Source: an uncultured candidate division Zixibacteria bacterium (GTDB taxonomy: Bacteria; Zixibacteria; MSB-5A5; UBA10806). Taken from it: 64,000 bases of DNA. The stretch covers positions 64,001-128,000 of the forward strand of contig CAWFQL010000006.1 of the NCBI GenBank assembly GCA_963817915.1, read 5' to 3'. Shown piece by piece: positions 7,532 to 55,300 of this stretch (positions within the stretch are counted from its first letter, which is position 1; every line of letters begins with the position of its first letter). Both the position numbers and the translations under genes were made by a program. Below the pieces are notes generated by a model, which made no database searches, was not told where the DNA came from, and saw only the letters and a program-made list of their open reading frames with translations.

Positions 7532-7924
7532 CTATTGATTGGGCTTGGAGGCGGGAGCCATCGAAGTCTCCCCTGATTTTCTCGATACCGCCGCACGGGC
7601 TGCTCGGTCGGCGACCTCTTTGCCTACCCCGGTGATCTCGATAATCTTGTCAACAGCCCTATCGAGCCAGACCGACCAATGGGAATTGGGGAATTTCAGC
7701 TTGAAATAATCGGTGACATCATCGGCTATAACCAGAATATACTCAGCGACTTCCCTGTTTTGCTTGACCTGCAGTAACGGCAGGATTTCCTTCTTAATCA
7801 GAAATCCGAGATAGACCATTAAAATTGCCCCTAAAGCCGCCAGCGATTTTTCAGTCAATAGGCCGCCAAGCCATGAAAATATGCTGGCGTTCAAATGGGT
7901 CGGATAAAATGCGAATAAAAACAT
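7532..7924 (-). CDS. Small membrane protein, holin-like; last gene of the head operon
   Basis: Hydrophobic segment followed by an amphipathic tail (AVDKIIEITGV..ADRAARAAV) reminiscent of LL-H-type holins; position at the end of a phage-like operon. Confidence 0.5.
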   Translation of the reverse strand: MFLFAFYPTHLNASIFSWLGGLLTEKSLAALGAILMVYLGFLIKKEILPLLQVKQNREVAEYILVIADDVTDYFKLKFPNSHWSVWLDRAVDKIIEITGVGKEVADRAARAAVSRKSGETSMAPASKPNQ

Positions 7925-7948
7925 GATAAATCTCCTTATGGTTTGAAA

Positions 7949-9412
7949 TTATTGTAATTGCCAACTTGATAAATCTGGCACGGCCACTTTCGATTTGTAG
8001 ATCACTCCCGATGGATATTCGATCGTGAAGAGATATTTGGACGAGGTTTTAGAAAGTAGAGAATTGGGGATTAAATCGATTTGCCAGTAACCATGAATAT
8101 CTGTCTGGGTAGTTTTCTTGAATGGCGTGATTATAACATCATCGTATTTGACCGGCTGATATTCCGATGGTATCTCGACAGTTACAACGATATTTGCCAG
8201 GCTATCGCCAACTATATCATATACTCGGCCATAAACACGGCACAGGTTCGGCGATGGTGGATCGCCGGGATTGAAATCCGTAATCCAGAGGATATCAGTC
8301 CCTCCACCGCTAACAACGTTGATAGTATCCAGATCGGTTTGGATGTAATTATTTGCCCGCAATGCCACTACATAGCTGCCGGGATCGAGCTCGGTTATTA
8401 GCCGTCCATTTGAATCTGTCTGAAGGCCGGGCACCTTTGTGGAAGTCTGAGCGAGATTTCTGACAGTAACAGAAACGCCTTCAAGCGCGGTGGTATCATT
8501 ATCAAAAACATAAAGAGTCTCGGCCTCGCTTCCGCTGCCGCTAATTGAAAGCGCCGCGATATCATCCTTGATATTTTGGTTATCGCCGTTCCCACCGGCA
8601 TAGGCCCCAATTTTAGAATGCAGATCGATTGACGACCCTTTCCATCCGAGCGAAGCCATTATTGAGTCAACCCTGGATGTCAATGATGGCGGGATCGTGG
8701 CCGTGCCGCCGTGATTATCGAGCATGGTTTTGAAATTCGGCTTCACATCCAAGGAATCTAAGCTCGCTGAATCTGGATTCGACAAAACGGCGTTCCTGGC
8801 GTCGAATGTCAATTTGTCGGTTTTCGTTTTTATTGCTGTAAGATCTGAATTGGAATTGATGTTGACGTTGTTAATTACTCCGCCGACATTGCCGGTTGTC
8901 ATAAAGACCTGTGAGTCAGCAAGCGAATAACCAGATTTGTCATAAACATATTTCGATCTGAGATAAGACGCTCCGGTCGATCCGCTGTCCGATGTCGCCA
9001 GAAAATCCTCTATCGGATCGGAATTGACATAATAGCTGCCATAATGCATTTGATGGGTGTCGGTGCCGTTATTGTTATCTACCAATAACGCCCACCAGGT
9101 GTAAGCCCCAAGGTCGCCATTGGAATTTGACGCCTTAAGGCGATATTCAAACATCAATGTTCGTGGATAAGTTGAATTCAGATCATAGCCGGAAGCCCCC
9201 GTGAGCGTATCGATATTAAAATCGGTTCCGCCGTAAGCCTGAACAATATAGGCCGTATCCCATGTCGTATACTGCCGCCCAGAGCTGTCGATAAGGCAGA
9301 ATTGTATAACGAGGGTATCGTTTTTCTCGCCCGAGCCATTATCGAAAATAAGCCCTGCCCTGGCTGAACAAGCTGAAAGCCAGATTATAATTGTAATCAA
9401 TAATTTATTCAT
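7949..9412 (-). CDS. Signal-peptide-bearing virion-accessory-like protein with C-terminal Ig/prealbumin-like domains
   Basis: MNKLLITIIIWLSACSARAG signal; AIKTKTDKLTF segment of the kind seen in phage fibre proteins; two beta-sandwich repeats (TDSNGRL, TDIHGYWQIDL). Confidence 0.55.
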   Translation of the reverse strand: MNKLLITIIIWLSACSARAGLIFDNGSGEKNDTLVIQFCLIDSSGRQYTTWDTAYIVQAYGGTDFNIDTLTGASGYDLNSTYPRTLMFEYRLKASNSNGDLGAYTWWALLVDNNNGTDTHQMHYGSYYVNSDPIEDFLATSDSGSTGASYLRSKYVYDKSGYSLADSQVFMTTGNVGGVINNVNINSNSDLTAIKTKTDKLTFDARNAVLSNPDSASLDSLDVKPNFKTMLDNHGGTATIPPSLTSRVDSIMASLGWKGSSIDLHSKIGAYAGGNGDNQNIKDDIAALSISGSGSEAETLYVFDNDTTALEGVSVTVRNLAQTSTKVPGLQTDSNGRLITELDPGSYVVALRANNYIQTDLDTINVVSGGGTDILWITDFNPGDPPSPNLCRVYGRVYDIVGDSLANIVVTVEIPSEYQPVKYDDVIITPFKKTTQTDIHGYWQIDLIPNSLLSKTSSKYLFTIEYPSGVIYKSKVAVPDLSSWQLQ

Positions 9413-10658
9413 TGAAATCTCCTATTACTAATTTCCTCCTTCTGAATCCTGAGCAAGTGGCAGATGAATATTTCATATAGATGCTATATTTCCTATTGCC
9501 CCCGGCGCCTGTGCCCATCGTAATATCGAAAGGAAGGGGGTCTGCAATATCTGTCTGGCTCGAGTCCGAGCCTGCGGTTCCGTTATCATAATAAAGATAA
9601 AGATTCAAATCTTTGGTGGAGCATTGGAGTGTGAGCCAGATTGTATCCTGACAAACCAGAGACTTACTAACCAATGAAAACCCCTGCCATGATGCCGATG
9701 TATTTGAAATAGTCCTCACCCCAGAACTGTCGGCAAAAGTCGCATTTACAGATCCGCCTTTATAGGCTGCGGCTGAAGCGCTGGGGTATGGAGTAGAGCT
9801 TGCCCGCACGTAAGCGAAAATCGAATCTGCGATAGCTGTCTCAGGCAGAATAAACCGGCTTGCCATTTTACCATCCGCCTTGAAGCTCTGAGAAGATGCG
9901 CCTGCTGATGTATAACCGACTGTAGGGTCGATCGTAACAGGAAAAACTGCCTGATTCAAAAAGCCGGCGGGGACATCAATGGAAAGGATGTTATTGGATA
10001 TTTTCAGATCGCACCAGGCGGAATTTCCAATTGAGTCGAATGCCTTCGGCCTGTAGATGTGAAAGGCTTTTGCATAAATCTTACGATCTTCTGAATTTGA
10101 GGTCGAATAGGCCGCATAACTCCCCACTACGCTATCGGGTCGATTGGCTCCACGAGCTATTTCGTATAGAGTCAGCGGCGGCTGATAAAATAATTCCATG
10201 TTGGACACATCAATTGGAAAATTAAATGAATTGCAGCCTGGGAGCGAATTTAAAACGATTTCCCATTCAAATTCGACAGATGATTTCCAATACCATCGAT
10301 AATAGCCGCCATTAAATTTCGAAATGATCGTGTCTAACGACACATTTAGCTGCTCCAATACTGAATTTAATGCGGGCAGAGTCTGTAGTGGCTTTGCAGT
10401 GAATTCGTGCGGCAATTTTATTTCGAAAAACGAATTATCCGGCCCATTGATGGAAAATAATTGCGGCGCCGATGATGATGCGTCATTGATTGATATGGAC
10501 ATTCCTTTTACTGAATCGCCATATGAATAACAATTTCTATCACCTTCAGATGTTTTTTGCCAATGATTGCTTAGCGGACTTTCCACACCTGCGTAAAGAT
10601 GTGCACTTCGAATGAGGATTAGGCTGACAACACCAATAACAAGTCTGTTTAATTGCAC
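9405..10658 (-). CDS. Signal-peptide-bearing phage-structural-like protein
   Basis: Likely GTG start at 10658 after GAAGGAG; hydrophobic N-terminus; RPDSVVGSYA..KAFHIYRPKA.D...W..L..FPVTIDPT resembles phage-associated proteins. Confidence 0.55.
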   Translation of the reverse strand: MQLNRLVIGVVSLILIRSAHLYAGVESPLSNHWQKTSEGDRNCYSYGDSVKGMSISINDASSSAPQLFSINGPDNSFFEIKLPHEFTAKPLQTLPALNSVLEQLNVSLDTIISKFNGGYYRWYWKSSVEFEWEIVLNSLPGCNSFNFPIDVSNMELFYQPPLTLYEIARGANRPDSVVGSYAAYSTSNSEDRKIYAKAFHIYRPKAFDSIGNSAWCDLKISNNILSIDVPAGFLNQAVFPVTIDPTVGYTSAGASSQSFKADGKMASRFILPETAIADSIFAYVRASSTPYPSASAAAYKGGSVNATFADSSGVRTISNTSASWQGFSLVSKSLVCQDTIWLTLQCSTKDLNLYLYYDNGTAGSDSSQTDIADPLPFDITMGTGAGGNRKYSIYMKYSSATCSGFRRRKLVIGDFNE

Positions 10659-10671
10659 GTTATTATCTCCT

Positions 10672-11496
10672 TCACGCGGAAGCCGGGCTATTGAATGATC
10701 CCAGGCGGCCGGCAAATTTGGAGAGGATATTGTACGCTTCTTTCTTGTACATGTCGGAGAGAGCGGTCCAGGATCGTGCCTCGTTGCCGCCATCGGTCTT
10801 GCCTCTCGATGGCGAAATAGATTCCATGGCGCGGATTCTGCAGATAATCGCGACCGACATGTAAGTCTCTGCGGTAACAAGCAGTCGGTCAGCCGATTCC
10901 CGATAAACCTCATCGATAAACGAGAGCACCTGATCATTGGCCTCGGCAATCGCGTTTTCAATAGAAGCATCATCAAGATTTCCATATTCGGTTGTGTAAT
11001 CGACCTGAACCCATTGGCCGGATTCTATCGCTCCGCCCGAACGGCGCTTAAGTGTTCCTGCCTGATATTCTATGTCATAATCGCTTCCGCGCTGGTAAAT
11101 TCGGTAGTTAAGATACCAGACGACTATCGATCCAGCCGCCGGAATTGAGCCTGATGCGATTCGCATAATCGTCCCCTGAATGTAGTCGATTTGAAAATCG
11201 ATATTTTCGATATAGATTTTCGAAAGAGAGCTATTATTGGCGGCGACCACCGTATTTGGAATAATCTGATTATGCGACAGCGCAACAGAATCGGATGAAG
11301 CAAAACTGATATTCTCTTCATTCGGTTCATTCTGCTCTCTGGCCTTGACTCGTTCAGATTCCGGCAAAATCATCCGCTTTTCCAGTTGGCTGGAGTCATT
11401 GGCATTCAATTGGATTTTTTCATCATAAATTTTGGCGGAACCGATATGATGGTCGAGGATATGTTTTTTGACTATTTCCTTGGTTGTAAATGGCAT
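10672..11496 (-). CDS. Head-closure/adaptor-like protein with repeated beta insert
   Basis: N-terminal MPFTTKEIVK and C-terminal DDASIENAIAEANDQV..LLVTAETYMSVAII resemble gp6/gp15-type adaptors; YxxxxDYxIxYxxGTI repeats in the middle. Confidence 0.5.
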   Translation of the reverse strand: MPFTTKEIVKKHILDHHIGSAKIYDEKIQLNANDSSQLEKRMILPESERVKAREQNEPNEENISFASSDSVALSHNQIIPNTVVAANNSSLSKIYIENIDFQIDYIQGTIMRIASGSIPAAGSIVVWYLNYRIYQRGSDYDIEYQAGTLKRRSGGAIESGQWVQVDYTTEYGNLDDASIENAIAEANDQVLSFIDEVYRESADRLLVTAETYMSVAIICRIRAMESISPSRGKTDGGNEARSWTALSDMYKKEAYNILSKFAGRLGSFNSPASA

Positions 11497-11867
11497 CAGT
11501 TCATCTCCAATATTAAGAGGTCAACAAGCGAATTGGATGGTTCTTCTTTCTTGCGAGCGATACGGAATGAGGTAGGTCCGACAGCGCCGAGGATAAAAGC
11601 CCCGATCTGATTTTTGGGAATAATAATTACGAGGGGTTTATTGATTGTCGTTGGCAACTGATTGCCGCGATGGTCTAGCAGGTCGGCAAAATCAACGATT
11701 TGGGAATTGCCGCCGGAATATTCATGCATGAATACGACTCGATTCTCCCCAGATTTATATTCAGTCAGCATCAGGTCGCCATCGAGAGAACCGGCGTCAC
11801 CCCATACGGTATAGTCCCTGATCAACCATTTGCGGTTGCCGGTAAGATAGTCCAATGTTATATTCAT
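11496..11867 (-). CDS. Hypothetical protein in head operon
   Basis: Overlapping start/stop with both neighbours (translational coupling). Confidence 0.7.
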   Translation of the reverse strand: MNITLDYLTGNRKWLIRDYTVWGDAGSLDGDLMLTEYKSGENRVVFMHEYSGGNSQIVDFADLLDHRGNQLPTTINKPLVIIIPKNQIGAFILGAVGPTSFRIARKKEEPSNSLVDLLILEMN

Positions 11868-13303
11868 ACGCCCTCCCTCACCAGAACAAGATCATCGGCC
11901 TTAACTCCAGCGACGATCTGAGAGCCGACCGGTTCAGCGGAAAATCCCAATGTCACGCGCGCCCGCACCCAATAATTATTGGAGTCATCGACCATTCCGA
12001 TCTGCCAATCTGACGGTGTCGATTCGCCATCCTGCCAGAAATAGACAAGAGCATCTAGCGAATCGAAATTGTAGCTTCCGGAAGATGGAATAAATTCCAC
12101 CCAATTCGAGCCGTTAAAATATTCCCAGACTACTGTCCCCGAGACTCCCGCGGTCGAAAGCAGAATGGCCGCGCTGAAGAATTTCGATTGTTTTCCGAAA
12201 TAGATACAATCGTCAATCGAATCGATTAGCGCGGATGATTCGGAGTGAAAAATATCAGCCAGAGTCGGGTTGGCGGCAACGGATGACCTATCTTGGAATT
12301 TTGTCGTACCGAGATTATTGTATAGGATTATCTTATCGAATGCGCCTATCGCGGGAGTATAGTTTGAAAGCGAAAATGATTCGCCGGATTTACCCGCGTA
12401 TCTGGGGATATAATAATTTTCCGCGATAAGCCTGGCATAGAAAATATGCGGAATATTATTCACATATCCGATTTGGGGCGATCTTGCCTGGACAGTCTCG
12501 ACTTCATATAGCCCACTCCAAAAGGAACCGTCATTCTCCTTGAAATAAACCTTATTTTCACCTGAGACTATAAAAACAACGCCAAGTTTCTTTTCAGGGC
12601 TCGGCGCGATATCAAAATCATCATCGATATAATTAGCGCTGTGGATTGCGGTTTCCGCTCCCCATGTAGGACCGGAAAGATCGCAGATTCGATAATTCAA
12701 ATCGGATCTATTGACACAATAAACGGCGTATAGCTTTGACGATATCTGGCAGGCGCCGACATAAGCGTTGACAGCGTAGCCCGAGGAAAGCGCGGTGCCA
12801 AGATCGGCGTCGCCAGTACCCCAGGTCGCGCCATCATCCGTTGACGATTTGACTCGTACATAATAATTGGAATCGAGCGAGGTTCGATGATTAACGAAAA
12901 AACACCAGAGCTTGCTATCGCTGTCTTTGATGACTGTTGGATTGTAGTTGTTATCGACAGCGACTACATTCACTTCGGAACCTGCTGTCCAAACCCCTGC
13001 ACCAAACAACAGCTTCACGAATTTAATTTTCCGGTCGGTATTGGTATAAACCAGATAGATATTGCCTGCCGCATCCATATGCGCCCCGAATGGCGAATCA
13101 TAAACGTCGGTAACAATGGCCTGCGGCGATGACCATGATTGATAGGGGTAGTCGGAATAGACGAGAGCGATCGCAGTCGCCGAGCTCATATACAATGCCG
13201 CAGTCCTCCCCTTGAATACACCCGATGGTATTCGAAGGAGCTTCCGTTGGCAGGGCGACCCGGTAGGCCGGGTCGCTGTCGATGTTGTCAAAAGCTTATG
13301 CAT
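11864..13303 (-). CDS. Beta-propeller (BNR/Asp-box) protein with C-terminal beta domain; candidate receptor-binding/spike protein
   Basis: Asp-box SSTDDGATW; W-spaced blades; VVWEYFNGSNW..YWVRARV tail; directly downstream of the capsid gene. Confidence 0.6.
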   Translation of the reverse strand: MHKLLTTSTATRPTGSPCQRKLLRIPSGVFKGRTAALYMSSATAIALVYSDYPYQSWSSPQAIVTDVYDSPFGAHMDAAGNIYLVYTNTDRKIKFVKLLFGAGVWTAGSEVNVVAVDNNYNPTVIKDSDSKLWCFFVNHRTSLDSNYYVRVKSSTDDGATWGTGDADLGTALSSGYAVNAYVGACQISSKLYAVYCVNRSDLNYRICDLSGPTWGAETAIHSANYIDDDFDIAPSPEKKLGVVFIVSGENKVYFKENDGSFWSGLYEVETVQARSPQIGYVNNIPHIFYARLIAENYYIPRYAGKSGESFSLSNYTPAIGAFDKIILYNNLGTTKFQDRSSVAANPTLADIFHSESSALIDSIDDCIYFGKQSKFFSAAILLSTAGVSGTVVWEYFNGSNWVEFIPSSGSYNFDSLDALVYFWQDGESTPSDWQIGMVDDSNNYWVRARVTLGFSAEPVGSQIVAGVKADDLVLVREGV

Positions 13304-13315
13304 CTATTCTGCTTT

Positions 13316-14422
13316 CTACCAGACCGAATCCAGTATCAATGATGCTTCTTTGATGAATTTGGCGTAGGAGAGGGATTCTGATATAACCGCCTCCTCGATT
13401 TTCTGCTCGATAACCTTATCGTATTCAATCATCAATGGCTGGCTGATGACCTCCTCGATCGCGAATCGATTGTCGAGGCCGATCACGTAATCGGTCGGAA
13501 CTTCGTCGCAACGAATCAATGATGCCCCGAGCGGAGATGTTATCTCGCCATTGGTCTGGAAATTGAATCCGATCAACGGATCCTTGAATTCGGCCAAAGT
13601 CAGAATGCTTCTGATTTTGTCTTTATGGCAGATCAGGATATTGGGTTGATATGGATAGAATTCGCTCCAGAATCTGACCAGGTCATCATAATCAAGAACA
13701 CTGGTGACATCGGTATTGATTACCTGGGCGGAGTTGGAATTGCCGTCGCCGTTGATAATAGTATTGACAATCATGGCGATCTTGTCAGATTGCAGACGAT
13801 AACCGATGTACCACAAAAGCACTTTGAATTGCGCCATCGAACGATAGCGAAGCGCCTTGTAGGATACCTTCAACGTCAACCCGTAATCCTGGATCGTGAT
13901 CGTATTGTTTTGTTCGGTGACATTGACCGATGGAATCATGGCCGCCTCGCCGACCGGCCTGAGCGACAGAGCCTTATCCCCGACACCATAGCCGACATGG
14001 ATCGGTGAATAACGAGACGATGATACATTGGAGCTCGATGACAAGAGCCGTCCCAATTCAGGGCGCATCTCCATGCCTCGTCTGATTTCGCGAAGCATGA
14101 ATTCAGGCATTAATGCCGGCGCGCCGCGATAAAATAACTCGACTGTAACGGGGTTCTTGCCGCCGGTGCGAAGCCCCTTCATTGCTAATTGCCGTTCGAA
14201 AGCGTCGAGCGGCGAGCCGGCCGGGCTGGGATCGAATTCGGGCAGTTCCAGAAGCTCAGTAAGCGATATTCCGCGAGCCTGGGCTTCGAGATATGTATCG
14301 CGTGTGACATCTATCTTCTTCGCGCGAGAGAAATCGACCGATTTCCCTCCGCTGTTTTTGGATTCGCCGGCTGTAGCCATGGCGATATTGAAATCAGATG
14401 ATAACAGTTTTTCAAATTCCAT
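13316..14422 (-). CDS. Phage major capsid protein (HK97 fold)
   Basis: LDAFERQL..GLR....VELFY....LMPEF..REIRRGM, YGLTLKVSYKALR, IINGDGN, IGLDNRFAIEEV; 368 aa; follows protease and decoration genes. Confidence 0.85.
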   Translation of the reverse strand: MEFEKLLSSDFNIAMATAGESKNSGGKSVDFSRAKKIDVTRDTYLEAQARGISLTELLELPEFDPSPAGSPLDAFERQLAMKGLRTGGKNPVTVELFYRGAPALMPEFMLREIRRGMEMRPELGRLLSSSSNVSSSRYSPIHVGYGVGDKALSLRPVGEAAMIPSVNVTEQNNTITIQDYGLTLKVSYKALRYRSMAQFKVLLWYIGYRLQSDKIAMIVNTIINGDGNSNSAQVINTDVTSVLDYDDLVRFWSEFYPYQPNILICHKDKIRSILTLAEFKDPLIGFNFQTNGEITSPLGASLIRCDEVPTDYVIGLDNRFAIEEVISQPLMIEYDKVIEQKIEEAVISESLSYAKFIKEASLILDSVW

Positions 14423-14456
14423 TATTTTCTCCTTAATGGTTTAAAATTGATATTGA

Positions 14457-14879
14457 TTAATTGAGGATAAGAGTCACATCCGATGTACCATTGACGTCGA
14501 TAACAGTCCCGCGGGCGACATTGCCGCCTGCCGGATCATAACCGGCCAAAACGGGCGCCTGCCTGACAGCACCCGTGCCGCTGACAACCACACGATTGCC
14601 AATTGCGGGTGTAGTAGCCGCTGAAGGCAACTTACAAATTCCACCGATTTGTACAGTGGCTACTCGCTTCCCGTTATCAGCATCGGTGAGTGAAAGATCG
14701 ATAAGCTTGCCCAACAACATTCCGCCGCTGGCTCCTAGCCCGACTTCGTAATTGGCTATGATGGTCACAGCCTTTCCGATATCGGTATCCCTGAGGTCAT
14801 CGACCCCCGCGGTCTGGTGCACCTTGAATGTCGCGGTTAAAAATCCGATTGTTTCCAGGTTTTGATCTCTTACTGCCAT
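14457..14879 (-). CDS. Capsid decoration/cement-like protein
   Basis: 140 aa, Gly/Val-rich (DIGKAVTI...LLGKL...ATVQIGG...GTVIDV), canonical position just upstream of the capsid gene. Confidence 0.7.
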   Translation of the reverse strand: MAVRDQNLETIGFLTATFKVHQTAGVDDLRDTDIGKAVTIIANYEVGLGASGGMLLGKLIDLSLTDADNGKRVATVQIGGICKLPSAATTPAIGNRVVVSGTGAVRQAPVLAGYDPAGGNVARGTVIDVNGTSDVTLILN

Positions 14880-14917
14880 GAATTCTCCTTTTCTGTTATA
14901 AATTTAGGGTGATATTT

Positions 14918-15163
14918 TTAGCGATAATCTTCTACTGCCAGCAAGGGCAGACGAATTGAACTTTCAGATCCTTTGGTTATCCCTCTGGACTTTTCTTTGG
15001 TCAATTCGGGTCTGAATGATTTTTCTTTTATGTCATTCAGAATGGCAGGCAGAGAATCTAATTTAGATATTATCGCATCCATGTCGAGCTTGCCAGATGA
15101 AAAGCCGTCGGTCAATCCACTTTTGATTTCATTTAGCCTCGTTAAGATTTCATCAAATTCCAA
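14918..15163 (-). CDS. Short coiled-coil protein, possible minimal scaffold
   Basis: Amphipathic helix; lies between protease and decoration genes; RBS AAAGGAG. Confidence 0.45.
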   Translation of the reverse strand: MEFDEILTRLNEIKSGLTDGFSSGKLDMDAIISKLDSLPAILNDIKEKSFRPELTKEKSRGITKGSESSIRLPLLAVEDYR

Positions 15164-15194
15164 TCGATACTCCTTTCATTTGAATAGTTTTTGT

Positions 15195-15500
15195 TCAGTG
15201 ATTTGCTTCGCTTTTTAGAATCGCCTTGTCTTCTTTTGCCAGCACAGTCTCGATAGCAGTCAGCTTACCGATAACCTCATTCTTGAATGTCGAAAGGTCT
15301 TCCTTGGTGGCGAATCGTTCATTGATGACAGATTCCAATCTTGCCAGTCTGACATTCATTTCAGTCACATAACGTTCTTCTGCTTTCCCGGCGAGCTCGA
15401 CCCGCAATCCGGTGTAAATCGCGAAATATCCCGACAAGGCCGCGGCCAGCGAAATCGCCAATGTTATCAAATACTTTATCAATGAGTCTTTCTCGGGCAT
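15195..15500 (-). CDS. Single-TM coiled-coil protein (phage membrane protein-like)
   Basis: TM segment LITLAISLAAALSGYFAIY then coiled coil with ATKEDL. Confidence 0.6.
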   Translation of the reverse strand: MPEKDSLIKYLITLAISLAAALSGYFAIYTGLRVELAGKAEERYVTEMNVRLARLESVINERFATKEDLSTFKNEVIGKLTAIETVLAKEDKAILKSEANH

Positions 15501-15515
15501 ATAAGCCTCACTTCG

Positions 15516-16334
15516 TTAATTAGACTTAATAATCAGGAATGATTCGCTGTTATAATTTGCTATGGCGGCTTGATAGTTTGGTGGATATGCTATCAGCTTC
15601 GCGGTTTTGTTTTCGGCTTTCAGCGGTAGAATGCGAACCAACCTTTTCGATAAATAGGTGAGCGGAATTTCGACAAATCTTGAAATACCGTCGATTTCAA
15701 TTTCGATCTTGTTATCATCCTCGCGAGATAATTTGTCGGTTATGAATGTGCCCTTGACCGAGCCGCGATAGACTAATGATGTTTCCAATACTTGCGTAAT
15801 ACCATTATAGATGAAATGCGCTTTCTCGGCGGATTGGCCTGACGAATAATCGATATCATGCGGGCAACCGCGCATATCCTGGCCGCAGATTGAGCATTCG
15901 GGGAAATTATATGAGAATGATATCGAGCATTCCTTGAGAACACCGGAATCGATTTTGGTCAATAGATCGTCGGGCTCATCGGCTTTAGTTGTCGGCCAAT
16001 AGAAATAGGCTTTGAGCCATTGAACACCATTTTTCTCTTCGATCTCTGCATGAAATGTGCGTGCCAAAGGCGCCTGCGAATGATCATGACCGACTAATAC
16101 GGGCGTATCAATAATCAGGCTTTTCAATTTCGATAAATCCTCTTTTCGAAATCGGCCGCCATGGGAATTGACAAGATTATTGACAACATACATGGCGCGG
16201 ATATTGACATTTTTCGGAGCTACGAATCGCGGCGGCTTGATATTATCGTTAATCAATGACGCCAGATAATTGAGTCTGACATTCGGGCTATCCAATGTGA
16301 GCTCACAAGTAAGCATTTCAGTTAATTTTTCCAT
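15516..16334 (-). CDS. Prohead (capsid maturation) protease
   Basis: Start MEKLTE after GGAGGA; PVLVGHDH, IDSGVLKECSISF, CSICGQDMRGCPH, LETSLV match HK97-type prohead proteases with a Cys/His insert. Confidence 0.75.
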   Translation of the reverse strand: MEKLTEMLTCELTLDSPNVRLNYLASLINDNIKPPRFVAPKNVNIRAMYVVNNLVNSHGGRFRKEDLSKLKSLIIDTPVLVGHDHSQAPLARTFHAEIEEKNGVQWLKAYFYWPTTKADEPDDLLTKIDSGVLKECSISFSYNFPECSICGQDMRGCPHDIDYSSGQSAEKAHFIYNGITQVLETSLVYRGSVKGTFITDKLSREDDNKIEIEIDGISRFVEIPLTYLSKRLVRILPLKAENKTAKLIAYPPNYQAAIANYNSESFLIIKSN

Positions 16335-16372
16335 TAATCCTCCATTCTCCACCTCTCGGGGGTTTTCAAACC

Positions 16373-16419
16373 AAATGCTCATTGAACCAGTTTATGAGAG
16401 TGATAAGGATGAATCCCGA
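16373..16419 (-). promoter_or_regulatory. Upstream element shared with the portal-terminase locus
   Basis: TCGGGATTCATC-N20-GTTCAATGAGCATTT; the last 15 bp are identical at 51074-51088. Confidence 0.75.
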
Positions 16420-16757: not shown

Positions 16758-16992
16758 TGTCATTCCGGCCCCCGAGCCCGTCAAGGGCCGGGCCGTTGAC
16801 GGCCGGAATCCATCTTCTCTTGTGAGTGGCAGAAGCTCAAATTTATTCCGTTATCTGCCAAAGATTATCTAATTGCCCGATTTCCTTTTGGGATTATCTT
16901 ACGCGTCAAGCCTTGCCCGCCAAACAAACGGCGGATATACCCTGACCACAAAAAAAGCGGGATGCGGTCACGGCAAGCCGCGACTCGCAGGA
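16758..16992. repeat. REP-like palindromes (GTCATTCCGGC...GCCGGAATCC; GCGGTCACG...GACTCGCAGGA)
   Basis: Inverted repeats; the second type recurs at 51182-51210. Confidence 0.65.
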
Positions 16993-31772: not shown

Positions 31773-32016
31773 ATCCTCTTTCTCCTAAGACTTGTTGTCA
31801 CTAATCCCCTCTCAACCGCTGGACAATATCCAACTAAGTGAAGTCGAGCACCTTGAACTTCGAATACGGATTACAATTCCATTTTGTTTCAATTATAAAT
31901 TAATGTGAGTAAAATTAGGCCATCAGCCGTCATTGGAGATTCCTAATTGAAATTCACCGGCGGCAGTCGTTGGCGACTGCCGGCCGTGTGAATTAGCATT
32001 TTATTTATCGGGGATT

Positions 32017-32955: not shown

Positions 32956-33248
32956 GTCCTTTTTCTCCTTAGGGAATAATTTGTATCTCATCTCGCTTCC
33001 CTATCGCCGGATGTCTTTAGTCAGTCGAAGCAAGTTACTTTGCCGTTCCAATACGGAATAAGGAATTCCATTTTGTTACATATACTTATATTTAAGCCGT
33101 ATTATGATAACGGCCACCCCCCTAATGCAGTGAGTGAAATTTATTGGCCGGCCTGTCGAAACAGAATATAGCCCAAATCTTGAAGTGATTTGGGTGCAAG
33201 TTCCTAATACCGCAGCGGTTTTGAGCTACAAACCGCTTAATACACAAA

Positions 33249-34163
33249 CTATTCTTTGAATTTCTCGAGTGCCGAAGCGGCGACCCAAAATATACTGTTC
33301 GCCTGCGCAGTGTGGCGAGTAAAGAACAGATATTTGCCATCGGCGGACAAATGGGCTCCAAACTCATCGTTCGGGCTATTGAATGCGGGCCCTAAATTGA
33401 CTGGTGTTCCCCATCCTCCGTTCCCATTGCTGAAACTCACGTAGAGATCTGCGCTACGACCATCCCGGCCGGAATTGAAAATAAGAAAATGCCCATCAGG
33501 AGCAATGCAGGGTCCGCCATCGTAAGCTCGCACATTGATTGGAGCGCCCAACAATACTGCCTGCCACGATTGGGTTGTATCTTTATATGTTTTGTATATC
33601 TGCATTATTCCAGAACGACTGGAGGCAATATACATAGTCCCGTCGGTCATAGCGCTGAAGCGATGTTCGTTACCATCACTATTAATTGGAGGAGGCAATG
33701 CAACTGGTACACCCCATGCTCCATTGGTATAGGACACGTTCCAGAGATCCCACGTCCCTATTGCTTTTTTCCCCGCAAATGTGAGATTGGCACCATCATC
33801 CGAAAAGACAGGTTCATTTGAATAAATGAAACCCGACGTGAAGGGGGCTTCTACAAAGGGAGTCCATACATCCGCCTGGAATTTCGAATAATATAGTTTT
33901 GGGCCTGAATAGTCAGCGGTACCGATCGAAAAGAAAAATTGAGTTCCATCCGGAGATAAAGCCGTGGCTTCTACCCAGACACCCGCCGAATCCAGCAACT
34001 CAGGAGCAAAAACGATCGGAGTTTCACCAGGCGGCGTTAGCCCTAAATATGTTGGCGAATCCGGCACTACTACATCAGTTGGTTTAGTTGATTCGTGCGC
34101 GCATGAATTTGCGAAAGCTAAAAGGGATAGGCTCATCCCAATGGCCAATAGCTTTTTTTGCAT
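33249..34163 (-). CDS. PD40/TolB-like lipoprotein, paralog 1
   Basis: Lipobox ANSC; close paralog of 30858-31772. Confidence 0.85.
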   Translation of the reverse strand: MQKKLLAIGMSLSLLAFANSCAHESTKPTDVVVPDSPTYLGLTPPGETPIVFAPELLDSAGVWVEATALSPDGTQFFFSIGTADYSGPKLYYSKFQADVWTPFVEAPFTSGFIYSNEPVFSDDGANLTFAGKKAIGTWDLWNVSYTNGAWGVPVALPPPINSDGNEHRFSAMTDGTMYIASSRSGIMQIYKTYKDTTQSWQAVLLGAPINVRAYDGGPCIAPDGHFLIFNSGRDGRSADLYVSFSNGNGGWGTPVNLGPAFNSPNDEFGAHLSADGKYLFFTRHTAQANSIFWVAASALEKFKE

Positions 34164-46502: not shown

Positions 46503-47718
46503 ATGAATTTTAGATCGACATGGGAATGGTTTCCCAGGCTTTTCAATACTCGCTGGTATTTCTCCCTGATTATTATCTTCGTCATGCTTCAGATTTTTCT
46601 ATTTGGCGAATTTCATAATCATCGATTCCTGCAAAATGACTTCAAGGTATACTACCGTGCAGCCGAGCGAATAGTTCAGGGCGAAAACCTGTATCGAGGC
46701 GATATCGATGGGTTTTACAAATACAAATACTCGCCGACAGCGTCTATATACTTTATACCATTTGCGGCCTTCCCGGTCGAGGTGGCCAAGATCCTATACT
46801 GGCTGTTTCTATCGACCGTCATCTGTTTCGGCTTCTATCTGGGCATAAAGATAATACTTCCGGATTTTCTCAGTCTGCCGCCATCGAAAGTTAATAGCAT
46901 TATTTTAATTTCCGCCCTGATTCTTGGCGTCTGCATCGAACGAGAAATCCATTTGGGGCAGGTCAACCACATCCTGCTGGTGCTTTATATGTCAGTATTC
47001 TATCTCCATAGCAAAGGCAAAATTAATGACGTCGTCGTTGATACTGGCGGCCACGATATTTTTCAAACCTTTCGGATTTATTTTCATCCCCTACTATTTG
47101 GTACGACGCCAATTCAAGATGGTCGGATTTTTCACGCTATTTCTAATCGTGCTGGCAATAGCTCCCGCGATATTCTTCGGATTCAGCAATCTGCAGGGGC
47201 AGTATCAGAATTGGTTCTTTGAAATCTCGGCCGAGCTCGCCAAAAAACAGACTCTGCTTGAGAATGCCAATCATTCAATATTTTCAATTCTGGCCAGGTA
47301 TACACCGCTAAGACTGATCGATTTCACCCCGGAGCTGACCAAAATATATCAGTTGATAGTAACCTCGCTCATCGGGATATTTTTTCTTTTTCTCTATTTC
47401 AAGGGGAAGGATATCGAGAGAAGATTCGTCCTGGAATCAGCGTTTATCATGGGGCTGATTCCGGCGCTGTCATATACCAGCTACAACGCCTACGGCTTCA
47501 TGGAATTGGCGGTTCTTCTAATTGTGATTAATTATAGGCAACTGCCGAAGTGGACTCGCATCGTGGCGATTGTCGGTTTTGTTTTTTCCGCTATTAATAT
47601 GTTCGATCTCGTGGGACGGAAAAATTGGGTGATTCTGAATGATATCTCGCTGATCGCAGTCGGAGCTTTAATTCTGATGATAGTCTTATCGATAATTCGT
47701 TTTCGCAAAATTGCATAA
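46503..47718 (+). CDS. GT87/DUF2029-like membrane glycosyltransferase (frameshift near 47020)
   Basis: DFKVYY.AA, YKYSP, GQVN in ORF 46503-47222; FKP and NHSI continue in ORF 46924-47718. Confidence 0.8.
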
Positions 47719-47728
47719 TTAGATTTTA

Positions 47729-49072
47729 TTAGAATCTCCCCACCGATGGCCGTATTATCGGGGCTTCGGATCCTCGCTGCCTTACCTGCCATAGAGCTAA
47801 TGCCAACGCGCAGACTCCATCGCCGACATTGGTATAGGATTTATCCATAGCGCGGATTTCATCGGTCAGGCTCCAGCTACCGCCATTGTCATCTGGGCAC
47901 TCAATGTGATTCCAGACAACTTCGCCCGCGAATATCGCCCGTTCGAAATTGGCCAAAAGCAGATCTCGATTGCCGCCTCCAAAATTAAAACCGATCGCCC
48001 CGATATCATCCAATTCCGAGAGAACAACATCGCCCAGGCCGGTGGAATCTATGATGGTCACGCCGCCATACTTATTATGAATATCCTTGATCATCTTAAT
48101 TGTAGTCGGCCATTCCCGCTGCATACGGATTATATTCATCACTTGGAACGGCTTGCTTGTGGCGTCAATAGTGATGCCAACCGTGTGCGTTACTTTTCGT
48201 GCTAAATCCCAGCCGTGGATAAAGAAATTATCCGAGCCGATGATAATTTTATCGTTCTGATTTTTCTCAATCAGACATCTTTCAATCACTTCTTCTGGGA
48301 ATAATCTCCCCTCGAATGACGCGAACCGCCCATAGAGATGCTGCTGAGCCCGTGCCTGCGATATATTTCCCTTCAGTTGGTCGAGATATTGGCGCGAAAG
48401 ATATGGATTTTCGAATGTTGCCCCTTGATGGAGATACCCTCGTCGCTCCTTTTCGATTGCCTGGCACCGTTTGAAAAACCAATTGAGGCCGTTCGGGGTC
48501 GATGAAAAATCAAGCGTCCCTCCCCTGTCGGCCAGACGCATTTTGATAACACCATCCACCACCCACTCGCCAAACGGCTCATACGCCGCCTCATCGAAAT
48601 TGATATAATCGAAATCATGGCCCAGCAGATATTCCCCTCGGTTATTGGTAGAGCGAGCCCATAACTCCGAGCCATTCTTGAATTCTATATGGGGAAATGG
48701 CGTTTGTTTGATAGAATGCACGAGCGCCATAAGATGATTCGACCTGCCAAGTAGATCTATGACCTTAAGAAATATTATCGATGACTGATCCTGCGTGATG
48801 GAAACATTGGCACAACGATAATACCCCGGCTTGTCGAATTTGGTAGGGCGGATTTGAAAGATTGCCCTGTGAATCAGCTTGACCGCCTGAATTTGTGATT
48901 TCCCCCAACGGTTGCCGGTCACAAGCGCATTTTCGACACCTGTAGAATTATTCAGCCATTTCGCCTGGCCCTCATGAGGATTTATTTTCAGAAATGATTT
49001 TGCAAAATAAACAATATCATTCACCGCCCGCCGCCAACTGCGGCAGGTAATTTCATCAGGTTTATCTATCAT
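47729..49072 (-). CDS. Phage terminase large subunit
   Basis: PHEGQ, Walker A GNRWGKS, Walker B INFDEAA, motif III SSTPNG, ENPYL; nuclease acidic residues in GWDLAR, IDSTGLGD, DGVCALALA. Confidence 0.92.
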   Translation of the reverse strand: MIDKPDEITCRSWRRAVNDIVYFAKSFLKINPHEGQAKWLNNSTGVENALVTGNRWGKSQIQAVKLIHRAIFQIRPTKFDKPGYYRCANVSITQDQSSIIFLKVIDLLGRSNHLMALVHSIKQTPFPHIEFKNGSELWARSTNNRGEYLLGHDFDYINFDEAAYEPFGEWVVDGVIKMRLADRGGTLDFSSTPNGLNWFFKRCQAIEKERRGYLHQGATFENPYLSRQYLDQLKGNISQARAQQHLYGRFASFEGRLFPEEVIERCLIEKNQNDKIIIGSDNFFIHGWDLARKVTHTVGITIDATSKPFQVMNIIRMQREWPTTIKMIKDIHNKYGGVTIIDSTGLGDVVLSELDDIGAIGFNFGGGNRDLLLANFERAIFAGEVVWNHIECPDDNGGSWSLTDEIRAMDKSYTNVGDGVCALALALWQVRQRGSEAPIIRPSVGRF

Positions 49073-49110
49073 TTTAAATCAAACACCAAAATGAGTGACT
49101 TTTGGCATTG

Positions 49111-49719
49111 TTATTGGCTATTGGCCACCGGTTTTGATATTGAATTTGTCATATTCTCGCGCGCCAATTCCTCTTTTCTGATTTCCGAAAGAATTTCCAA
49201 AAGCAGCTTTTCATTTTGCGAGCCCTCGGAAATTTTCTGTTTGATCTCAATCGCTTTGAATGCCGAATCGATCTTGAGTTCGATTTCGCCATCAACCAGT
49301 TTTTTATAAACCATATCGCGAACAGTATCGAGTAATAGCTGATCGCTGATAACGAGCGGCTGGATAATTTTTTTATTAGCGTTAATAGCGTCGTCAGGAA
49401 CCCTTTCCTGACGATTAACCTGCATCTTTGCATCTTCAGGAATCCTTTCCTGACGACCAACTAGTGTCTTCTTCGCATCGCTGCTACCAATGCCGCCGGT
49501 GCTTTTGGGTTCGACAGGCCTAATAGTCTTTTCAGCTTTAGTCTTGCAGTCCTCTTGCTTAATATGATTTGCCCTATGCTTCGCCAATGAGAACCGACTG
49601 ATCGGCACTCCATTGCTCTTGGCCCATTGAATAACACCATCGACTTTGCCAGGCATGTCCCTTTTTTCTATTTCATTTCTCAATGACGAGGCGCATATGG
49701 CGCATGTTTCGATCGGCAT
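49111..49719 (-). CDS. Putative terminase small subunit (CxxC...HxxxH zinc finger/HTH plus oligomerisation helices)
   Basis: Between portal and TerL; CAICAS...SLAKHRANH; C-terminal helical pair. Confidence 0.65.
   Translation of the reverse strand: MPIETCAICASSLRNEIEKRDMPGKVDGVIQWAKSNGVPISRFSLAKHRANHIKQEDCKTKAEKTIRPVEPKSTGGIGSSDAKKTLVGRQERIPEDAKMQVNRQERVPDDAINANKKIIQPLVISDQLLLDTVRDMVYKKLVDGEIELKIDSAFKAIEIKQKISEGSQNEKLLLEILSEIRKEELARENMTNSISKPVANSQ
49390..49457. repeat. Two REP-like palindromes embedded in-frame in the TerS linker
   Basis: TCAGGAA(C/T)CCTTTCCTGACGA twice, 45 bp apart; intergenic relatives at 45039-45063, about 5309-5335 and about 58728. Confidence 0.7.
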
Positions 49720-49720
49720 A

Positions 49721-51010
49721 TCAGCTTTCCTCCTCGGCTACGAAAATCCGTTCGCGGGCTTCTTCTTTGGTCAGCAGGCCTGCCTTGAAAAGCTCCATGA
49801 CTCGTTCAGCGGCTTCGTGTTCACTGCGATATTTCTCGAATATATTATCGATCCCGTTATTGTCGAAACGGACTTCAGCCCTGATGTCGTGTCCCTCATG
49901 CTTGAGATAGTTATTGATGAGCCATTCGAAAAATCTGATGGCCAGTTTTTGAACCGAGACTATTTGTCTTAATACCAGTTCATATTTGAACCCCGCCCAG
50001 GTTTGAGTAGTGCCAAATGAGTACCCGAGCATGAATGGATCGAGATGAACTCCGGCGCAGATATCCTCTACCAGAGCCCGATGAGATAGATACCACGCGC
50101 TCGTGGCAGGAGTCGCGCCGCTGCCGGGGCCAATAGTCTTGATTTCGATATCATCCCAGGTCACCGCGGAATCCGAGGGCTTGATGCCGGAAAAGAGTTT
50201 GACCGTATCGTCGAAATAGTCATTGGCCCTATCTATATAATTTGGCTCCGATTCGCCCATCCTGCGTTCCGGCTTCTTGATAAGCACATGCATGCGATTA
50301 TATCCGGCCTTCTCCTGCGATTTCTGCATATCATCGAGTAGCTTCTGCTCCAAGCGGCTTACAAAACCAATTGATTGCAATATGCTCTTGCCGCGCGGAT
50401 CCGAAACATCGTCATCAAGCGGGATATAAATAAAACTCGATTGGTCGGCGAGAATCTTCTCATTATAGGAATCTATATAGATTTTCAATTCATCTTCATT
50501 TTCGAAGACCAACTTACGCAAATCGACTGCCGAGAATCCGTTGATACCGCCCGATTCCGAAAGATCTATATTCCCCGCGAAGGCGCCATCCACAAAGAGG
50601 CTATTGAAGAAAAGATCGGATAATCTTTGCAGGCCCCCGGTTTTATAATATTGATTCGGCGCCAATTTATTATTGAGCTCGTCAATTGCATCACGCAATT
50701 TCGCCTTGTTTCTCTCGGTGATATTTTCCGCCAGATGAATTTCCATCGGGCTTGAGCACAGCCTGACCCATACCCATATCGCGCCGTTGATGACAGGAAT
50801 ATTCTCACGCAAAAAGCGATACAAAGTCACCCGCTCATTGTAGCTATAATCATCAGGGAAACTTATCATCGCTTGTTTGTTAGCCAGACCGGCGCCGGGC
50901 CTGGTGCGGGCATGATGGTGCGGTTTATTGGCAGGCGCGCGTTGCGACAAAGCCGTCGATGGAATTTGCTTAGATTTACCTGTTTTTTTGAAAAATGGTA
51001 TCTTGATCAT
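49721..51010 (-). CDS. Phage portal protein
   Basis: LYRFLRENIPVINGAI..WVRL, DPRGKSIL, IEIKTIG, ICAGVHLDPFMLG.S.GTT; heads the operon with TerS and TerL. Confidence 0.82.
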   Translation of the reverse strand: MIKIPFFKKTGKSKQIPSTALSQRAPANKPHHHARTRPGAGLANKQAMISFPDDYSYNERVTLYRFLRENIPVINGAIWVWVRLCSSPMEIHLAENITERNKAKLRDAIDELNNKLAPNQYYKTGGLQRLSDLFFNSLFVDGAFAGNIDLSESGGINGFSAVDLRKLVFENEDELKIYIDSYNEKILADQSSFIYIPLDDDVSDPRGKSILQSIGFVSRLEQKLLDDMQKSQEKAGYNRMHVLIKKPERRMGESEPNYIDRANDYFDDTVKLFSGIKPSDSAVTWDDIEIKTIGPGSGATPATSAWYLSHRALVEDICAGVHLDPFMLGYSFGTTQTWAGFKYELVLRQIVSVQKLAIRFFEWLINNYLKHEGHDIRAEVRFDNNGIDNIFEKYRSEHEAAERVMELFKAGLLTKEEARERIFVAEEES

Positions 51011-51073
51011 CGCCTCTCCTTTGGCAAGAAAACGTTTCGACTAGTCATTCCACCTTTAGGCTATTTTAATAAT

Positions 51074-51120
51074 AAATGCTCATTGAACTCTTTTTGAGAT
51101 TTATCCCGCATAAAATCCGA
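51074..51120 (-). promoter_or_regulatory. Upstream element shared with the capsid operon
   Basis: TCGGATTTTATG-N20-GTTCAATGAGCATTT, collinear with 16373-16419. Confidence 0.75.
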
Positions 51121-51302
51121 TTTGTTTAGTGAACCCGCGGCGAGTCAGGGCTTGCCCTGACCGCCCCCGACTAATTAAGATGCGGTCACGTCAAGACGTG
51201 ACTCGCAGGAATAAGGTTTCTGATTCATTCGGCGATTGACCGTCAATGAATAATCTCGTAATATTTCAACCAATGCATCTAAACCATTTCAGGAGGATTA
51301 TT

Positions 51303-51875: not shown

Positions 51876-51888
51876 GATTTCCAAAGAA

Positions 51889-51916: not shown

Positions 51917-52068
51917 AAGATATTGTAATTCCGAACCCCTGCGGTTCGGACTCTTTATTATCAACTCTATACAGGCAGAAGGAACCACGAGGATTCTCTC
52001 TATCAACCATCATTTTTCCTGATCGGGGAACATATTTTGACATTTGGCGATTTTTAATAGTAATTGAT

Positions 52069-52914: not shown

Positions 52915-53001
52915 ATATCTGATATAGTTGCCAACGGGTTTCGCGGTACTGCCGGAAAATAATGGTTGACCCTTAAGACGTTGAAAAGTTACATTTAAGC
53001 A

Positions 53002-53364: not shown

Positions 53365-53401
53365 GCTATCATTTCCAACAAGATTAATTTCCTGACAAAG
53401 C

Positions 53402-53962: not shown

Positions 53963-54013
53963 AAAAACCCCTATCGTAATAATAGGGGCTCAAATTCTTT
54001 ACGTATGTATTTT

Positions 54014-54223
54014 TTAGTTCGTCTTTAAAACGTTTTGGGCCTGTAAACCCTTAGGTCCCTCCACTAATTCAAATTGAACGTTATCCCCTTCCAACAATGA
54101 CTTGAACCCATCGCCCTTGATCGAAGTGTAATGAACAAAAACATCATTACCATTTTCATTGAGAGTGATGAACCCGTATCCCTTCTTACTATTAAACCAC
54201 TTCACTTTACCAATTGAAATCAA
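54014..54223 (-). CDS. Cold-shock protein
   Basis: [21 protein letters not shown]; promoter TTGACT-17-TATACT at 54354-54326 gives a 5' UTR of about 95 nt. Confidence 0.95.
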
Positions 54224-54579
54224 TGGGATACCTCCTGTTAATAATTGATGTTAAACTCTTAAAAAAAGAAAACCTCATTTGCTGGAAGTCCTTTGGGTGA
54301 GGCCACTACGCCAAGCCTCAATTTTAGTATAATCATACGGTATGGCCGAGTCAAGTAAAATCTGTGATAAAATCTATTGTACCGCAACACCTTGCATCCA
54401 TATGTATGGTATGACCATTCTATATATTGTGGTTTAAGATACATTGGTCAGCGGATGAATTCTTCATTTTATGCCCGTGACAATAATAAGTAAAATCAGG
54501 AAATGAATTTCGGATGAATATCAAGTGATAACCGTTGCCGGATTTTCGGAGCATATTTCTATCCAAAAAAGGAGAAAAT

Positions 54580-55077
54580 GTGCCGAAAATCAAAGGATTC
54601 GATCCTCAGGTAATTGATACAATAGAGATAGAACAATCTAAGTTGACTGACCCGGTCCTGGTTGATACGGTCAGCAATGCCATGAACAGACTTGATCCTG
54701 GATCACAACAATTGATTTATGAAATATTTTATCAAGGCCATTCACTATCTGGCATAGCCAGTCGGGATGGTATTCCACTCAATGAGTTGAACCGTCGCTT
54801 TTACGAAATCAAAAGGCAATTAAAGATGATTCTGGGTGATTTCGTCAAAAATCGATGGGGGCTGAATGTAACCGGCACCTGTAGAATCTGCAGCCATCCC
54901 CGAAAAGAAGCAATCGACAGAGTAATTTTGGCTAAGAATGATTCGGAATCTTGGGGACAAATTTGCAAAAATTTGGAATCAATAACTGGAGAAAAATTCT
55001 ATCCGCCTCAAATCCTGAAAGCACACTTAAAACATATTTCCAGCGTTAACAACGGAGGGAACAGTAATGGCAAATGA
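54580..55077 (+). CDS. Sigma70-region-4-like HTH fused to a CxxC...HxxH zinc-finger domain; candidate regulator
   Basis: GTG after AAAGGAG; AMNRL....QQLIYEIFYQGHSLSGIA..GI.....RR; CRICSHPRKEAID...LKAHLKH. Confidence 0.65.
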   Translation: MPKIKGFDPQVIDTIEIEQSKLTDPVLVDTVSNAMNRLDPGSQQLIYEIFYQGHSLSGIASRDGIPLNELNRRFYEIKRQLKMILGDFVKNRWGLNVTGTCRICSHPRKEAIDRVILAKNDSESWGQICKNLESITGEKFYPPQILKAHLKHISSVNNGGNSNGK

Positions 55078-55300
55078 TCATCGACATGTGCAGATTAGAT
55101 TGACAAGAGAGATGAAGCAGGATCTGGAGAATTTATCAAAACGTTACGAGATGACCATTTCGGATGCTATCAGAACAATCATCTATTTCGGCCTGCCGGT
55201 ATTTACATCGCTCATGGATGTCCAGATGGAATTAGCCCGGCGTATCGCCGCCAACCTTAAAAAAGACGCCCGAAAGGAAAGCTCAGTCCAGGGTAGTTGA
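55067..55300 (+). CDS. Ribbon-helix-helix (CopG-like) protein
   Basis: HVQIRLTREMKQDLENLSKRYEMTISDAIR. Confidence 0.75.
   Translation: MANDHRHVQIRLTREMKQDLENLSKRYEMTISDAIRTIIYFGLPVFTSLMDVQMELARRIAANLKKDARKESSVQGS

Follow-up and report, generated by a model that had tools for sequence, protein, structure and literature searches.

A 64,000-nt window from a Zixibacteria metagenome-assembled genome (MAG; GCA_963817915.1, contig CAWFQL010000006.1 positions 64,001-128,000, labelled G000:C6:64001-128000 in the analysis, in which genomes carry G and loci L numbers) contains two operons of phage head, neck and packaging genes. These genes were probably captured as a phage head-and-neck set by an ancestor of the Zixibacteria, have been kept since and would work as a particle system of the gene transfer agent (GTA, viriform) type; this GTA-like reading appears the best one. 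About 13 members are conserved throughout the phylum, namely the portal, the large terminase (TerL), a protease-like protein, a membrane coiled-coil protein, the decoration protein, the capsid protein, a propeller, an adaptor, a 123-aa protein, a small helical protein, two signal-peptide-like proteins and a small membrane protein. The source genome comprises 3.33 Mb in 22 contigs, and both loci lie inside one 239-kb contig:

7532-16334, minus strand: head operon
47729-51010, minus strand: portal/TerL (packaging) operon

The operons are 31.3 kb apart and together span 43.5 kb. Such a layout, two phage-type operons 31 kb apart with host genes between them, had been described in an original prediction made from the letters of the window, and the genes were indeed found on the minus strand where it had placed them, give or take a few bases. 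The interval holds ordinary genes (LVIVD, subtilase, BNR proteins with type IX secretion tails, DEAD helicase, AceK, MFS transporter, MscL, patatin and others). As also predicted, the open reading frame (ORF) calls in the window showed intact frames in every head and packaging gene, and host genes abut the set closely: only 10 bases separate the stop of TerL from that of a convergent GT87 glycosyltransferase gene, and gltA lies 400 bp downstream of the last head-operon gene. The GC content and base composition of the two operons are no different from those of the rest of the window.

For a domesticated set, the original prediction had asked for a single copy, congruence with the species tree, a ratio of nonsynonymous to synonymous substitution rates (dN/dS) well below 1 and conserved host neighbourhoods. 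The capsid gene could be identified in 255 of the 285 Zixibacteria species genomes (189/198 high-quality genomes, 118/130 genera), mostly as one match per genome. Among 41 relatives the major capsid protein (MCP) was present in 37 and TerL in 39, and MCP gave a single match in its own genome. Trees of MCP and rpoB were compared for the 23 genomes with full-length sequences of both; G008, G009, G011, G012, G020, G021 and G022 were omitted because of fragmentary rpoB or a missing or truncated capsid, and G027 because it has no capsid. The two trees have 17 of 20 internal splits in common and an identical topology inside both well-sampled families, and the three splits on which they differ lie deep in the trees and have weak support. 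For MCP and rpoB the patristic distances gave a Mantel r of 0.934, which was reached by 0 of 9999 permutations, and MCP identity to the source genome followed citrate synthase identity with a Spearman coefficient of 0.93 (27 genomes), both values overstating the agreement because related genomes are non-independent. Mean identities at the family, order and class level were 77, 68 and 61% for MCP and 78, 72 and 62% for citrate synthase. In five close locus pairs dN/dS was 0.03-0.22 for the genes of the cluster and 0.03-0.16 for flanking host genes. The neighbourhoods did not turn out as expected: the flanks seen here are not conserved, and gltA is no neighbour of the set in relatives. Judged from these comparisons, the set is domesticated and vertically inherited across the phylum, not mobile.

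Passages of the published GTA definition (PMC9662315) describe caudoviricete-derived proteins that form caudovirion-like particles, encapsidate mostly random host DNA and deliver it to other cells, the head being too small for the particle's own genome to be packaged completely. They further describe full endogenisation, often in several loci, and mostly vertical inheritance with host co-diversification, and they list three independently exapted GTA groups. In the Zixibacteria set, particle proteins of phage origin are recognised at the level of sequence (capsid, portal, TerL and decoration protein by PHROGs) or fold (adaptor); the genome is endogenised, here in two loci, with no integrase, att, tRNA or replication genes; and vertical inheritance is seen in the splits common to MCP and rpoB. 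As far as these passages of PMC9662315 define them, the genomic criteria for a GTA agree with what the set appears to be.

Both operons are preceded by the same element:

51046-51088, minus strand: ~43-nt upstream element of the packaging operon; the portal ATG lies 63 nt downstream of its 15-mer and ~20 nt downstream of its 3' end
16345-16387, minus strand: ~43-nt upstream element of the head operon, its 15-mer 38 nt upstream of the ATG at 16334

The first 15 nt of the two copies are identical, and the 3.33-Mb genome has no further exact copy of this 15-mer than these two, one ahead of the portal gene and one ahead of the protease gene. Over 8 sites the ~43-nt element has 28 invariant columns. 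Relatives in the same family carry it before both genes even where the genes form a contiguous block, which indicates that the set consists of two transcription units, portal-to-TerL and protease-to-end, with one dedicated control element. The earlier claim that the operons are co-regulated is thus supported by the common upstream element. A 20-nt pattern derived from the element sites was found exactly twice in each of G006 and G003, in both cases at the portal and protease gene starts, and G013 has a single match, ahead of its packaging genes; the reversed pattern, used as a control, gave 0 matches. The whole-genome exclusivity of the pattern still appears informative. Since each unit has its own copy of the element, the packaging unit could move 31 kb without being lost.

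Two other candidates for a role in regulation were rejected. A 32-nt hairpin repeat, considered as a second regulatory motif, has ~40 dispersed copies genome-wide and is non-specific, and a 180-aa sigma-70-region-4-like gene (54535-55077), considered as the regulator, lies beside the set in only one other locus (L025).

The same ~43-nt element was also observed elsewhere in the source genome, where it precedes every copy of a four-hairpin non-coding unit of ~125 nt that is present six times:

C3:134078-134197, C10:50397-50520, C12:579730-579847, C17:79180-79299, C17:206754-206873 and C17:502632-502799, outside the window: small-RNA-like loci L070-L075

RNAalifold gave -40 kcal/mol for this unit and 5 pairs with compensatory change. 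It was absent from 20 relatives by BLAST, and Rfam returned no family at the six loci or in the window except two tRNAs. They could be small RNAs that belong to the regulon of the two operons; alternatively, they may represent a mobile unit that has picked up the promoter. At 40-75 nt upstream of the protease start, other Zixibacteria families (L038, L040, L053, L058 and L067) have a palindromic TTGCGCAA box, which is extended to TTTTGCGCAAAA in L053. The TTGCGCAA box may be the counterpart of the ~43-nt element in these families.

The packaging operon encodes three proteins:

49721-51010, minus strand: portal, 429 aa (PHROGs phrog_3753, 7.1e-25; 16/16 mapped loci; dN/dS 0.07-0.09)
49111-49719, minus strand: 202-aa protein, originally named as a small terminase (TerS), with an N-terminal CxxC and helix-turn-helix-like part and a C-terminal ~65-aa helical domain
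47729-49072, minus strand: large terminase TerL, 447 aa (phrog_2, 2e-26; Pfam Terminase_6N, 7.5e-6; dN/dS 0.09)

In TerL, GNRWGKS, FDE and four acidic residues are invariant in 14/14 aligned orthologues. We take these to be Walker A, Walker B and the nuclease motif, respectively, as had been claimed from the single sequence. The TerS label of the 202-aa protein is rejected as unproven. No library recognises the protein: no Pfam or PDB profile match was obtained, and its homologue set searched against Pfam and PHROGs gave only phrog_1007 (unknown function) in 7/18 members. Outside the family of the source genome, a homologue of the C-terminal domain of the 202-aa protein is encoded by a ~90-105-aa gene located after the 123-aa gene, and in those families the portal-TerL gap is 0-250 nt with no conserved gene mapped in it. 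The small helical, basic-tailed protein of the set could serve as small terminase. For the RcGTA small terminase, a passage of PMC6854486 indicates that a GTA may use one without strong sequence specificity; no similarity to it was found, and the gene of the small helical protein is beside TerL only in the family of the source genome.

The first part of the head operon runs from the protease-like gene to the capsid gene:

15516-16334, minus strand: prohead-protease-like protein, 272 aa (phrog_16951, 8.9e-16, unknown function)
15195-15500, minus strand: 101-aa coiled-coil protein, N-terminally membrane-spanning (residues 11-22 form a hydrophobic window of 2.49; 16/16 loci; dN/dS 0.05-0.13)
14918-15163, minus strand: 81-aa helical, scaffold-like ORF (matches in close relatives only)
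14457-14879, minus strand: head decoration protein, 140 aa (phrog_4588, 2.1e-7; phrog_122, 1.7e-4; dN/dS 0.03-0.10)
13316-14422, minus strand: major capsid protein, 368 aa (phrog_3922, 5.5e-61; dN/dS 0.04-0.05)

The evidence for the protease label is weak and consists of viral neighbours in the Atlas, weak Peptidase_S78/S77 leads and the conservation of His, Ser, Cys and Glu residues across 30 sequences; a PDB profile search gave nothing useful. Its start codon is most likely the ATG at 16334, as originally predicted, rather than position 16382 given by the ORF caller, since 16382 falls within the conserved upstream element. Outside the family of the source genome (L036-L067) the protease-like gene encodes ~485-626 aa with a long, poorly conserved C-terminal part, compared with ~250-295 aa within the family. 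This part is possibly a scaffold fusion. The 81-aa ORF is recognisable only in the family of the source genome, and other families carry an unrelated ~140-aa gene at the same place.

The second part of the head operon encodes the propeller, the neck candidates and the exported and membrane proteins:

11864-13303, minus strand: beta-propeller with a C-terminal beta-sandwich, 479 aa, lectin- or glycan-lyase-like
11496-11867, minus strand: 123-aa beta-rich protein (16/16 loci; Atlas neighbours are viral hypothetical proteins at 0.90-0.91)
10672-11496, minus strand: head-to-tail adaptor, 274 aa, with gp6-like helices and an inserted Ig-like beta domain, assigned by fold
9405-10658, minus strand: ~417-aa protein with a signal-peptide-like N-terminus (hydrophobic in 8/8 members; hypothetical homologues only)
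7949-9412, minus strand: 487-aa protein with a signal peptide, a lipobox-like LSAC and a CarboxypepD_reg Ig-like domain (N-terminus hydrophobic in 15/15; PF13620 in 12/14; 15/16 loci)
7532-7924, minus strand: holin-like membrane protein of 130 aa, encoded by the last gene of the set (residues 28-39 give a transmembrane window of 2.46; 12/16 loci; weak phrog_11448, unknown function)

The count of two accessory proteins in the original prediction was one gene short, as four genes (123, 274, ~417 and 487 aa) lie between the propeller and the last gene. The propeller is a candidate receptor-binding protein. It was also considered as a sialidase, which was rejected: by the catalytic-residue rule it falls short, as only one arginine is invariant, and for this reason the protein is read as a binding or other glycan-active module. 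The 123-aa protein, for which no PDB profile match was found, is a candidate neck or stopper protein. PDB profile searches by sequence gave nothing useful for the adaptor and the 487-aa protein, and for the ~417-aa protein only noise-level rows of haemagglutinin HA1 (E 0.009 and worse). When the homologue sets of the 487-aa and ~417-aa proteins were searched against Pfam and PHROGs, CarboxypepD_reg was the only named family obtained. Signal-peptide-like N-termini, which are unexpected in virion parts, were found in 0/7 capsid and packaging proteins tested.

The prediction that integrase, att repeat, replication, repressor, tail-tube and tape-measure genes are missing agreed with the scans of the window. 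With Pfam and PHROGs none of the integrase, replication, repressor, tail-tube and tape-measure families was detected among the 61 window ORFs; there is no tRNA in the window and no att-like direct repeat around the head operon. The search for tail loci elsewhere, which had been proposed as a check, gave no match to tape measure (PF10145) or sheath in the whole genome (lysin families were not searched genome-wide), and all integrase matches of the source genome are on contigs other than that of the set. The siphovirus-type tail genes of the RcGTA type (tail tube, tape measure and distal tail proteins) were not found among the cluster ORFs. The features of a temperate prophage (integrase with att, replication or lysogeny modules, patchy presence) were not found either, and neither locus has in or beside it the integrase or replication initiator of a capsid-forming phage-inducible chromosomal island or satellite. 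An encapsulin, a shell of HK97 fold that is loaded with protein cargo and has no portal or terminase, does not fit with the portal and intact TerL found in 16/16 loci. As to the suggestion of a tail-less or short-tailed particle, no long-tail genes were found, but with a gp6-like adaptor and a lectin-like propeller the particle would not be simply tail-less.

In the proposed mechanism, some host signal would switch on both units together. Protease, capsid and decoration proteins would build the head on the portal, TerL would fill it with DNA, and the adaptor and the 123-aa protein would close the neck. The packaged DNA is probably host DNA, because no recognisable sequence-specific small terminase is present in most of the phylum. 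The lectin-like propeller would then bind a surface glycan of the recipient cell. Release, or a task at the cell surface, would fall to the two exported proteins together with the small membrane protein.

Several points weigh against a GTA-like system. Particle formation, the content of host DNA and delivery to cells are predictions from gene content, and for 7532-16400 no public sequencing run was listed. Depending on the size of the head, most species might have room in it for the whole contiguous set of ~13 kb. No small terminase is recognised in the set, and no tail tube, tape measure, sheath, nozzle or endolysin (for lysins with the scope given above), so that the steps of delivery and release are without identified parts. 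The GTA model predicts no signal-peptide-like N-termini, and these are present on the ~417-aa (8/8) and 487-aa (15/15) proteins. A capsid match is absent from 9/198 high-quality genomes, and in L055 (a Zixibacteria chromosome record, 10001-10774) the match begins at query residue 108, and neither a protease nor a decoration gene was found within 10 kb upstream of it. As for the control element, the 20-nt pattern has no exact match in G001 and G008, and the test is weakened because the pattern was derived from the very sites it recovered. The overstated correlations of MCP with host markers belong here as well. L055 looks like a broken copy in one lineage; a genome with two partial capsid matches in the phylum survey may be the same as L055.

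A domesticated particle could also serve a purpose other than gene exchange, such as abortive defence by packaging or destroying DNA during phage attack, release of DNA for biofilms, or action as a killing or surface-bound particle by means of the exported proteins and the lectin-like propeller. Such a particle is just as compatible with the evidence for domestication, no tail or delivery device was recognised, and the two signal-peptide-like and two membrane proteins are not explained by the GTA model. We nevertheless consider this unlikely, since an intact portal, a TerL with ATPase and nuclease motifs and an adaptor point to closed heads filled with DNA, and no defence family was found by Pfam in the 61 window ORFs (PADLOC was not run).

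An extension that joins the GTA-like reading with these additional proteins is proposed only with little confidence. It describes a phylum-wide DNA-particle machine that would encode both the particle and its partners in the cell envelope: the propeller on a tail-less neck would recognise a surface structure built or formed by the two co-inherited, fast-diverging exported proteins, the membrane proteins would handle assembly and exit without tail or endolysin, and DNA would be exchanged in a kin-specific manner under one control element, which also stands before the six small RNAs.

The presence of head, packaging and adaptor genes, with tail tube, tape measure and sheath found neither in the cluster nor in the genome, would also suit a chromosomally fixed head-only system that borrows the tails of co-infecting phages. 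Capsid-forming phage-inducible chromosomal islands are reported to make heads that become infectious once joined to the tails of a helper phage; they are mobile, integrase-bearing, helper-dependent and patchy in distribution. The Zixibacteria set is similar to them in being a compact head, packaging and connector set without tail genes, but it lacks both integrase and att site, and its inheritance is vertical throughout the phylum. Tail borrowing is considered very unlikely, as replication and helper-interference genes are missing too, strict vertical descent over a whole phylum is unlike mobile satellites, and the conserved propeller beside the neck genes could itself be the binding device.

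An ordinary prophage, or the decaying remnant of one, that owes its wide distribution to a phage common in Zixibacteria is already contradicted and hardly credible: all recognisable genes are phage-type and the outside relatives are capsid genes of an Oscillospiraceae MAG and of IMG/VR, but one match per genome in most of the 255 carriers, a tree congruent with rpoB, the low dN/dS, the lack of integrase, repressor and replication genes and the intact frames and control element of the split copy all stand against it. The nearest outside relatives are a capsid gene of 33% identity in the Oscillospiraceae MAG and one in an IMG/VR contig. In the viral contig collection just one distant capsid relative was found, at 33% identity.

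That the 31-kb separation is a misassembly of a set that is really contiguous is equally far from credible, despite a MAG of 22 contigs and dispersed repeats resembling repetitive extragenic palindromes (REP-like) upstream of both operons: both loci lie in the one contig and the window contains no N, the two operons have separate flanks and separate copies of the upstream element, and splits are also found in G004, G008 and, by 90 kb, in the unrelated single-contig genome G013.

The split itself is a derived state. When the window proteins were mapped on 45 related loci, a canonical block of ~13 kb was obtained with the order portal, TerL, protease, membrane protein, decoration, capsid, propeller, adaptor with the 123-aa gene, variable genes and small membrane protein. 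In 20 genomes capsid and TerL are on one contig; TerL is located at most 7.1 kb upstream on the same strand in 16 of them, and the remaining 4 are split: the distance is 31 kb in the source genome and 90 kb in G013, and it is 20 kb in G008 and 11 kb in G014, both of which also show an inversion. Among 28 assessable loci TerL was within 10 kb in 22 and not in 6. G004, the sister of the source genome in both trees, is split, as is G008 of the same genus, which suggests a single event in their common ancestor with the source genome; the split in G013 is independent. An LVIVD-repeat gene is directly upstream of the portal in G001, and its homologue is directly upstream of the protease in the source genome. 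From these positions it follows that the 3.3-kb packaging unit moved out. The downstream flank was rearranged too, since gltA is not beside the capsid set in relatives. For the landing site of the packaging module, the neighbouring GT87 gene and a 209-aa ORF were missing or scattered in five relatives. The multi-locus layout is thus derived in a minority of lineages and is not a trait of the system, and the set described as dispersed in the original prediction is contiguous in most relatives. Contiguous prophages with integrases in relatives, which would have spoken against domestication, were not seen, as the contiguous blocks of relatives have no integrases or replication genes. Copies of the 32-nt REP-like hairpin repeat (~40 genome-wide) are located at 16961-16992 and 51179-51210, upstream of both operons and near the rearrangement joins; the repeat may have mediated the move of the packaging unit.

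Compared with known systems, the GTA-like set of Zixibacteria is most easily placed beside the RcGTA type of Alphaproteobacteria (Rhodogtaviriformidae), the 'genome' of which is described as multi-locus in a passage of PMC5026251. Both have phage-derived head and packaging genes fixed in the chromosome without integrase or replication genes, are inherited vertically in a large clade with host co-divergence and purifying selection, and can have parts in several loci under common control. The Zixibacteria set differs in belonging to another phylum, with an independent origin and no sequence-level link seen. It has no siphovirus-type tail genes; it adds a lectin-like propeller, two signal-peptide-like proteins and two membrane proteins; its split, present only in some lineages, divides the head and packaging genes themselves; and its packaging and transfer of DNA are predicted from genes. 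BaGTA, VSH-1, Dd1 and VTA are independently domesticated GTAs, and those described have tails. The Zixibacteria set resembles them as a caudovirus structural module exapted by a host lineage and differs in its lack of tail genes, and no such agent was found in the literature for Zixibacteria. Literature searches combining Zixibacteria with gene transfer agent or terminase gave no description of such a system, and the terminase matches listed were community surveys.

To our knowledge only a handful of GTAs are known. Here, a whole uncultured phylum that is common in sediments seems to have retained a DNA-packaging head of viral origin throughout its existence, and the slow divergence of the capsid gene is about that of citrate synthase. 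Should the particles contain host DNA, they would form a main path for gene exchange among Zixibacteria, and 'viral' capsid signals and host DNA seen in sediment viromes would in part come from them. New from the source window are the control element common to both operons, the assignments by fold, the doubt cast on TerS, the exported proteins of the set and the junction that documents the move of the packaging unit. The split copy is a natural experiment in which packaging and head units are separate, commonly controlled modules, and the short dedicated control element could serve in the search for the regulator and for the condition that induces the set.

Some further observations concern the host genes of the window. 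The GT87 glycosyltransferase gene convergent with TerL (46503-47718) consists of two overlapping frames, each matching half of the family, which is a frameshift, a pseudogene or a sequencing error. The gltA gene (5842-7131) is bracketed by two pairs of hairpin-like direct repeats of 35-42 nt with ~90% identity at 5477-5705 and 7346-7423. At 232-5198 there are seven tandem genes, six of which encode small outer-membrane beta-barrel proteins (OmpW / OMP_b-brl / Opacity-like), and three tandem paralogues with PD40 (WD40-like) repeats are located at 30858-34163.

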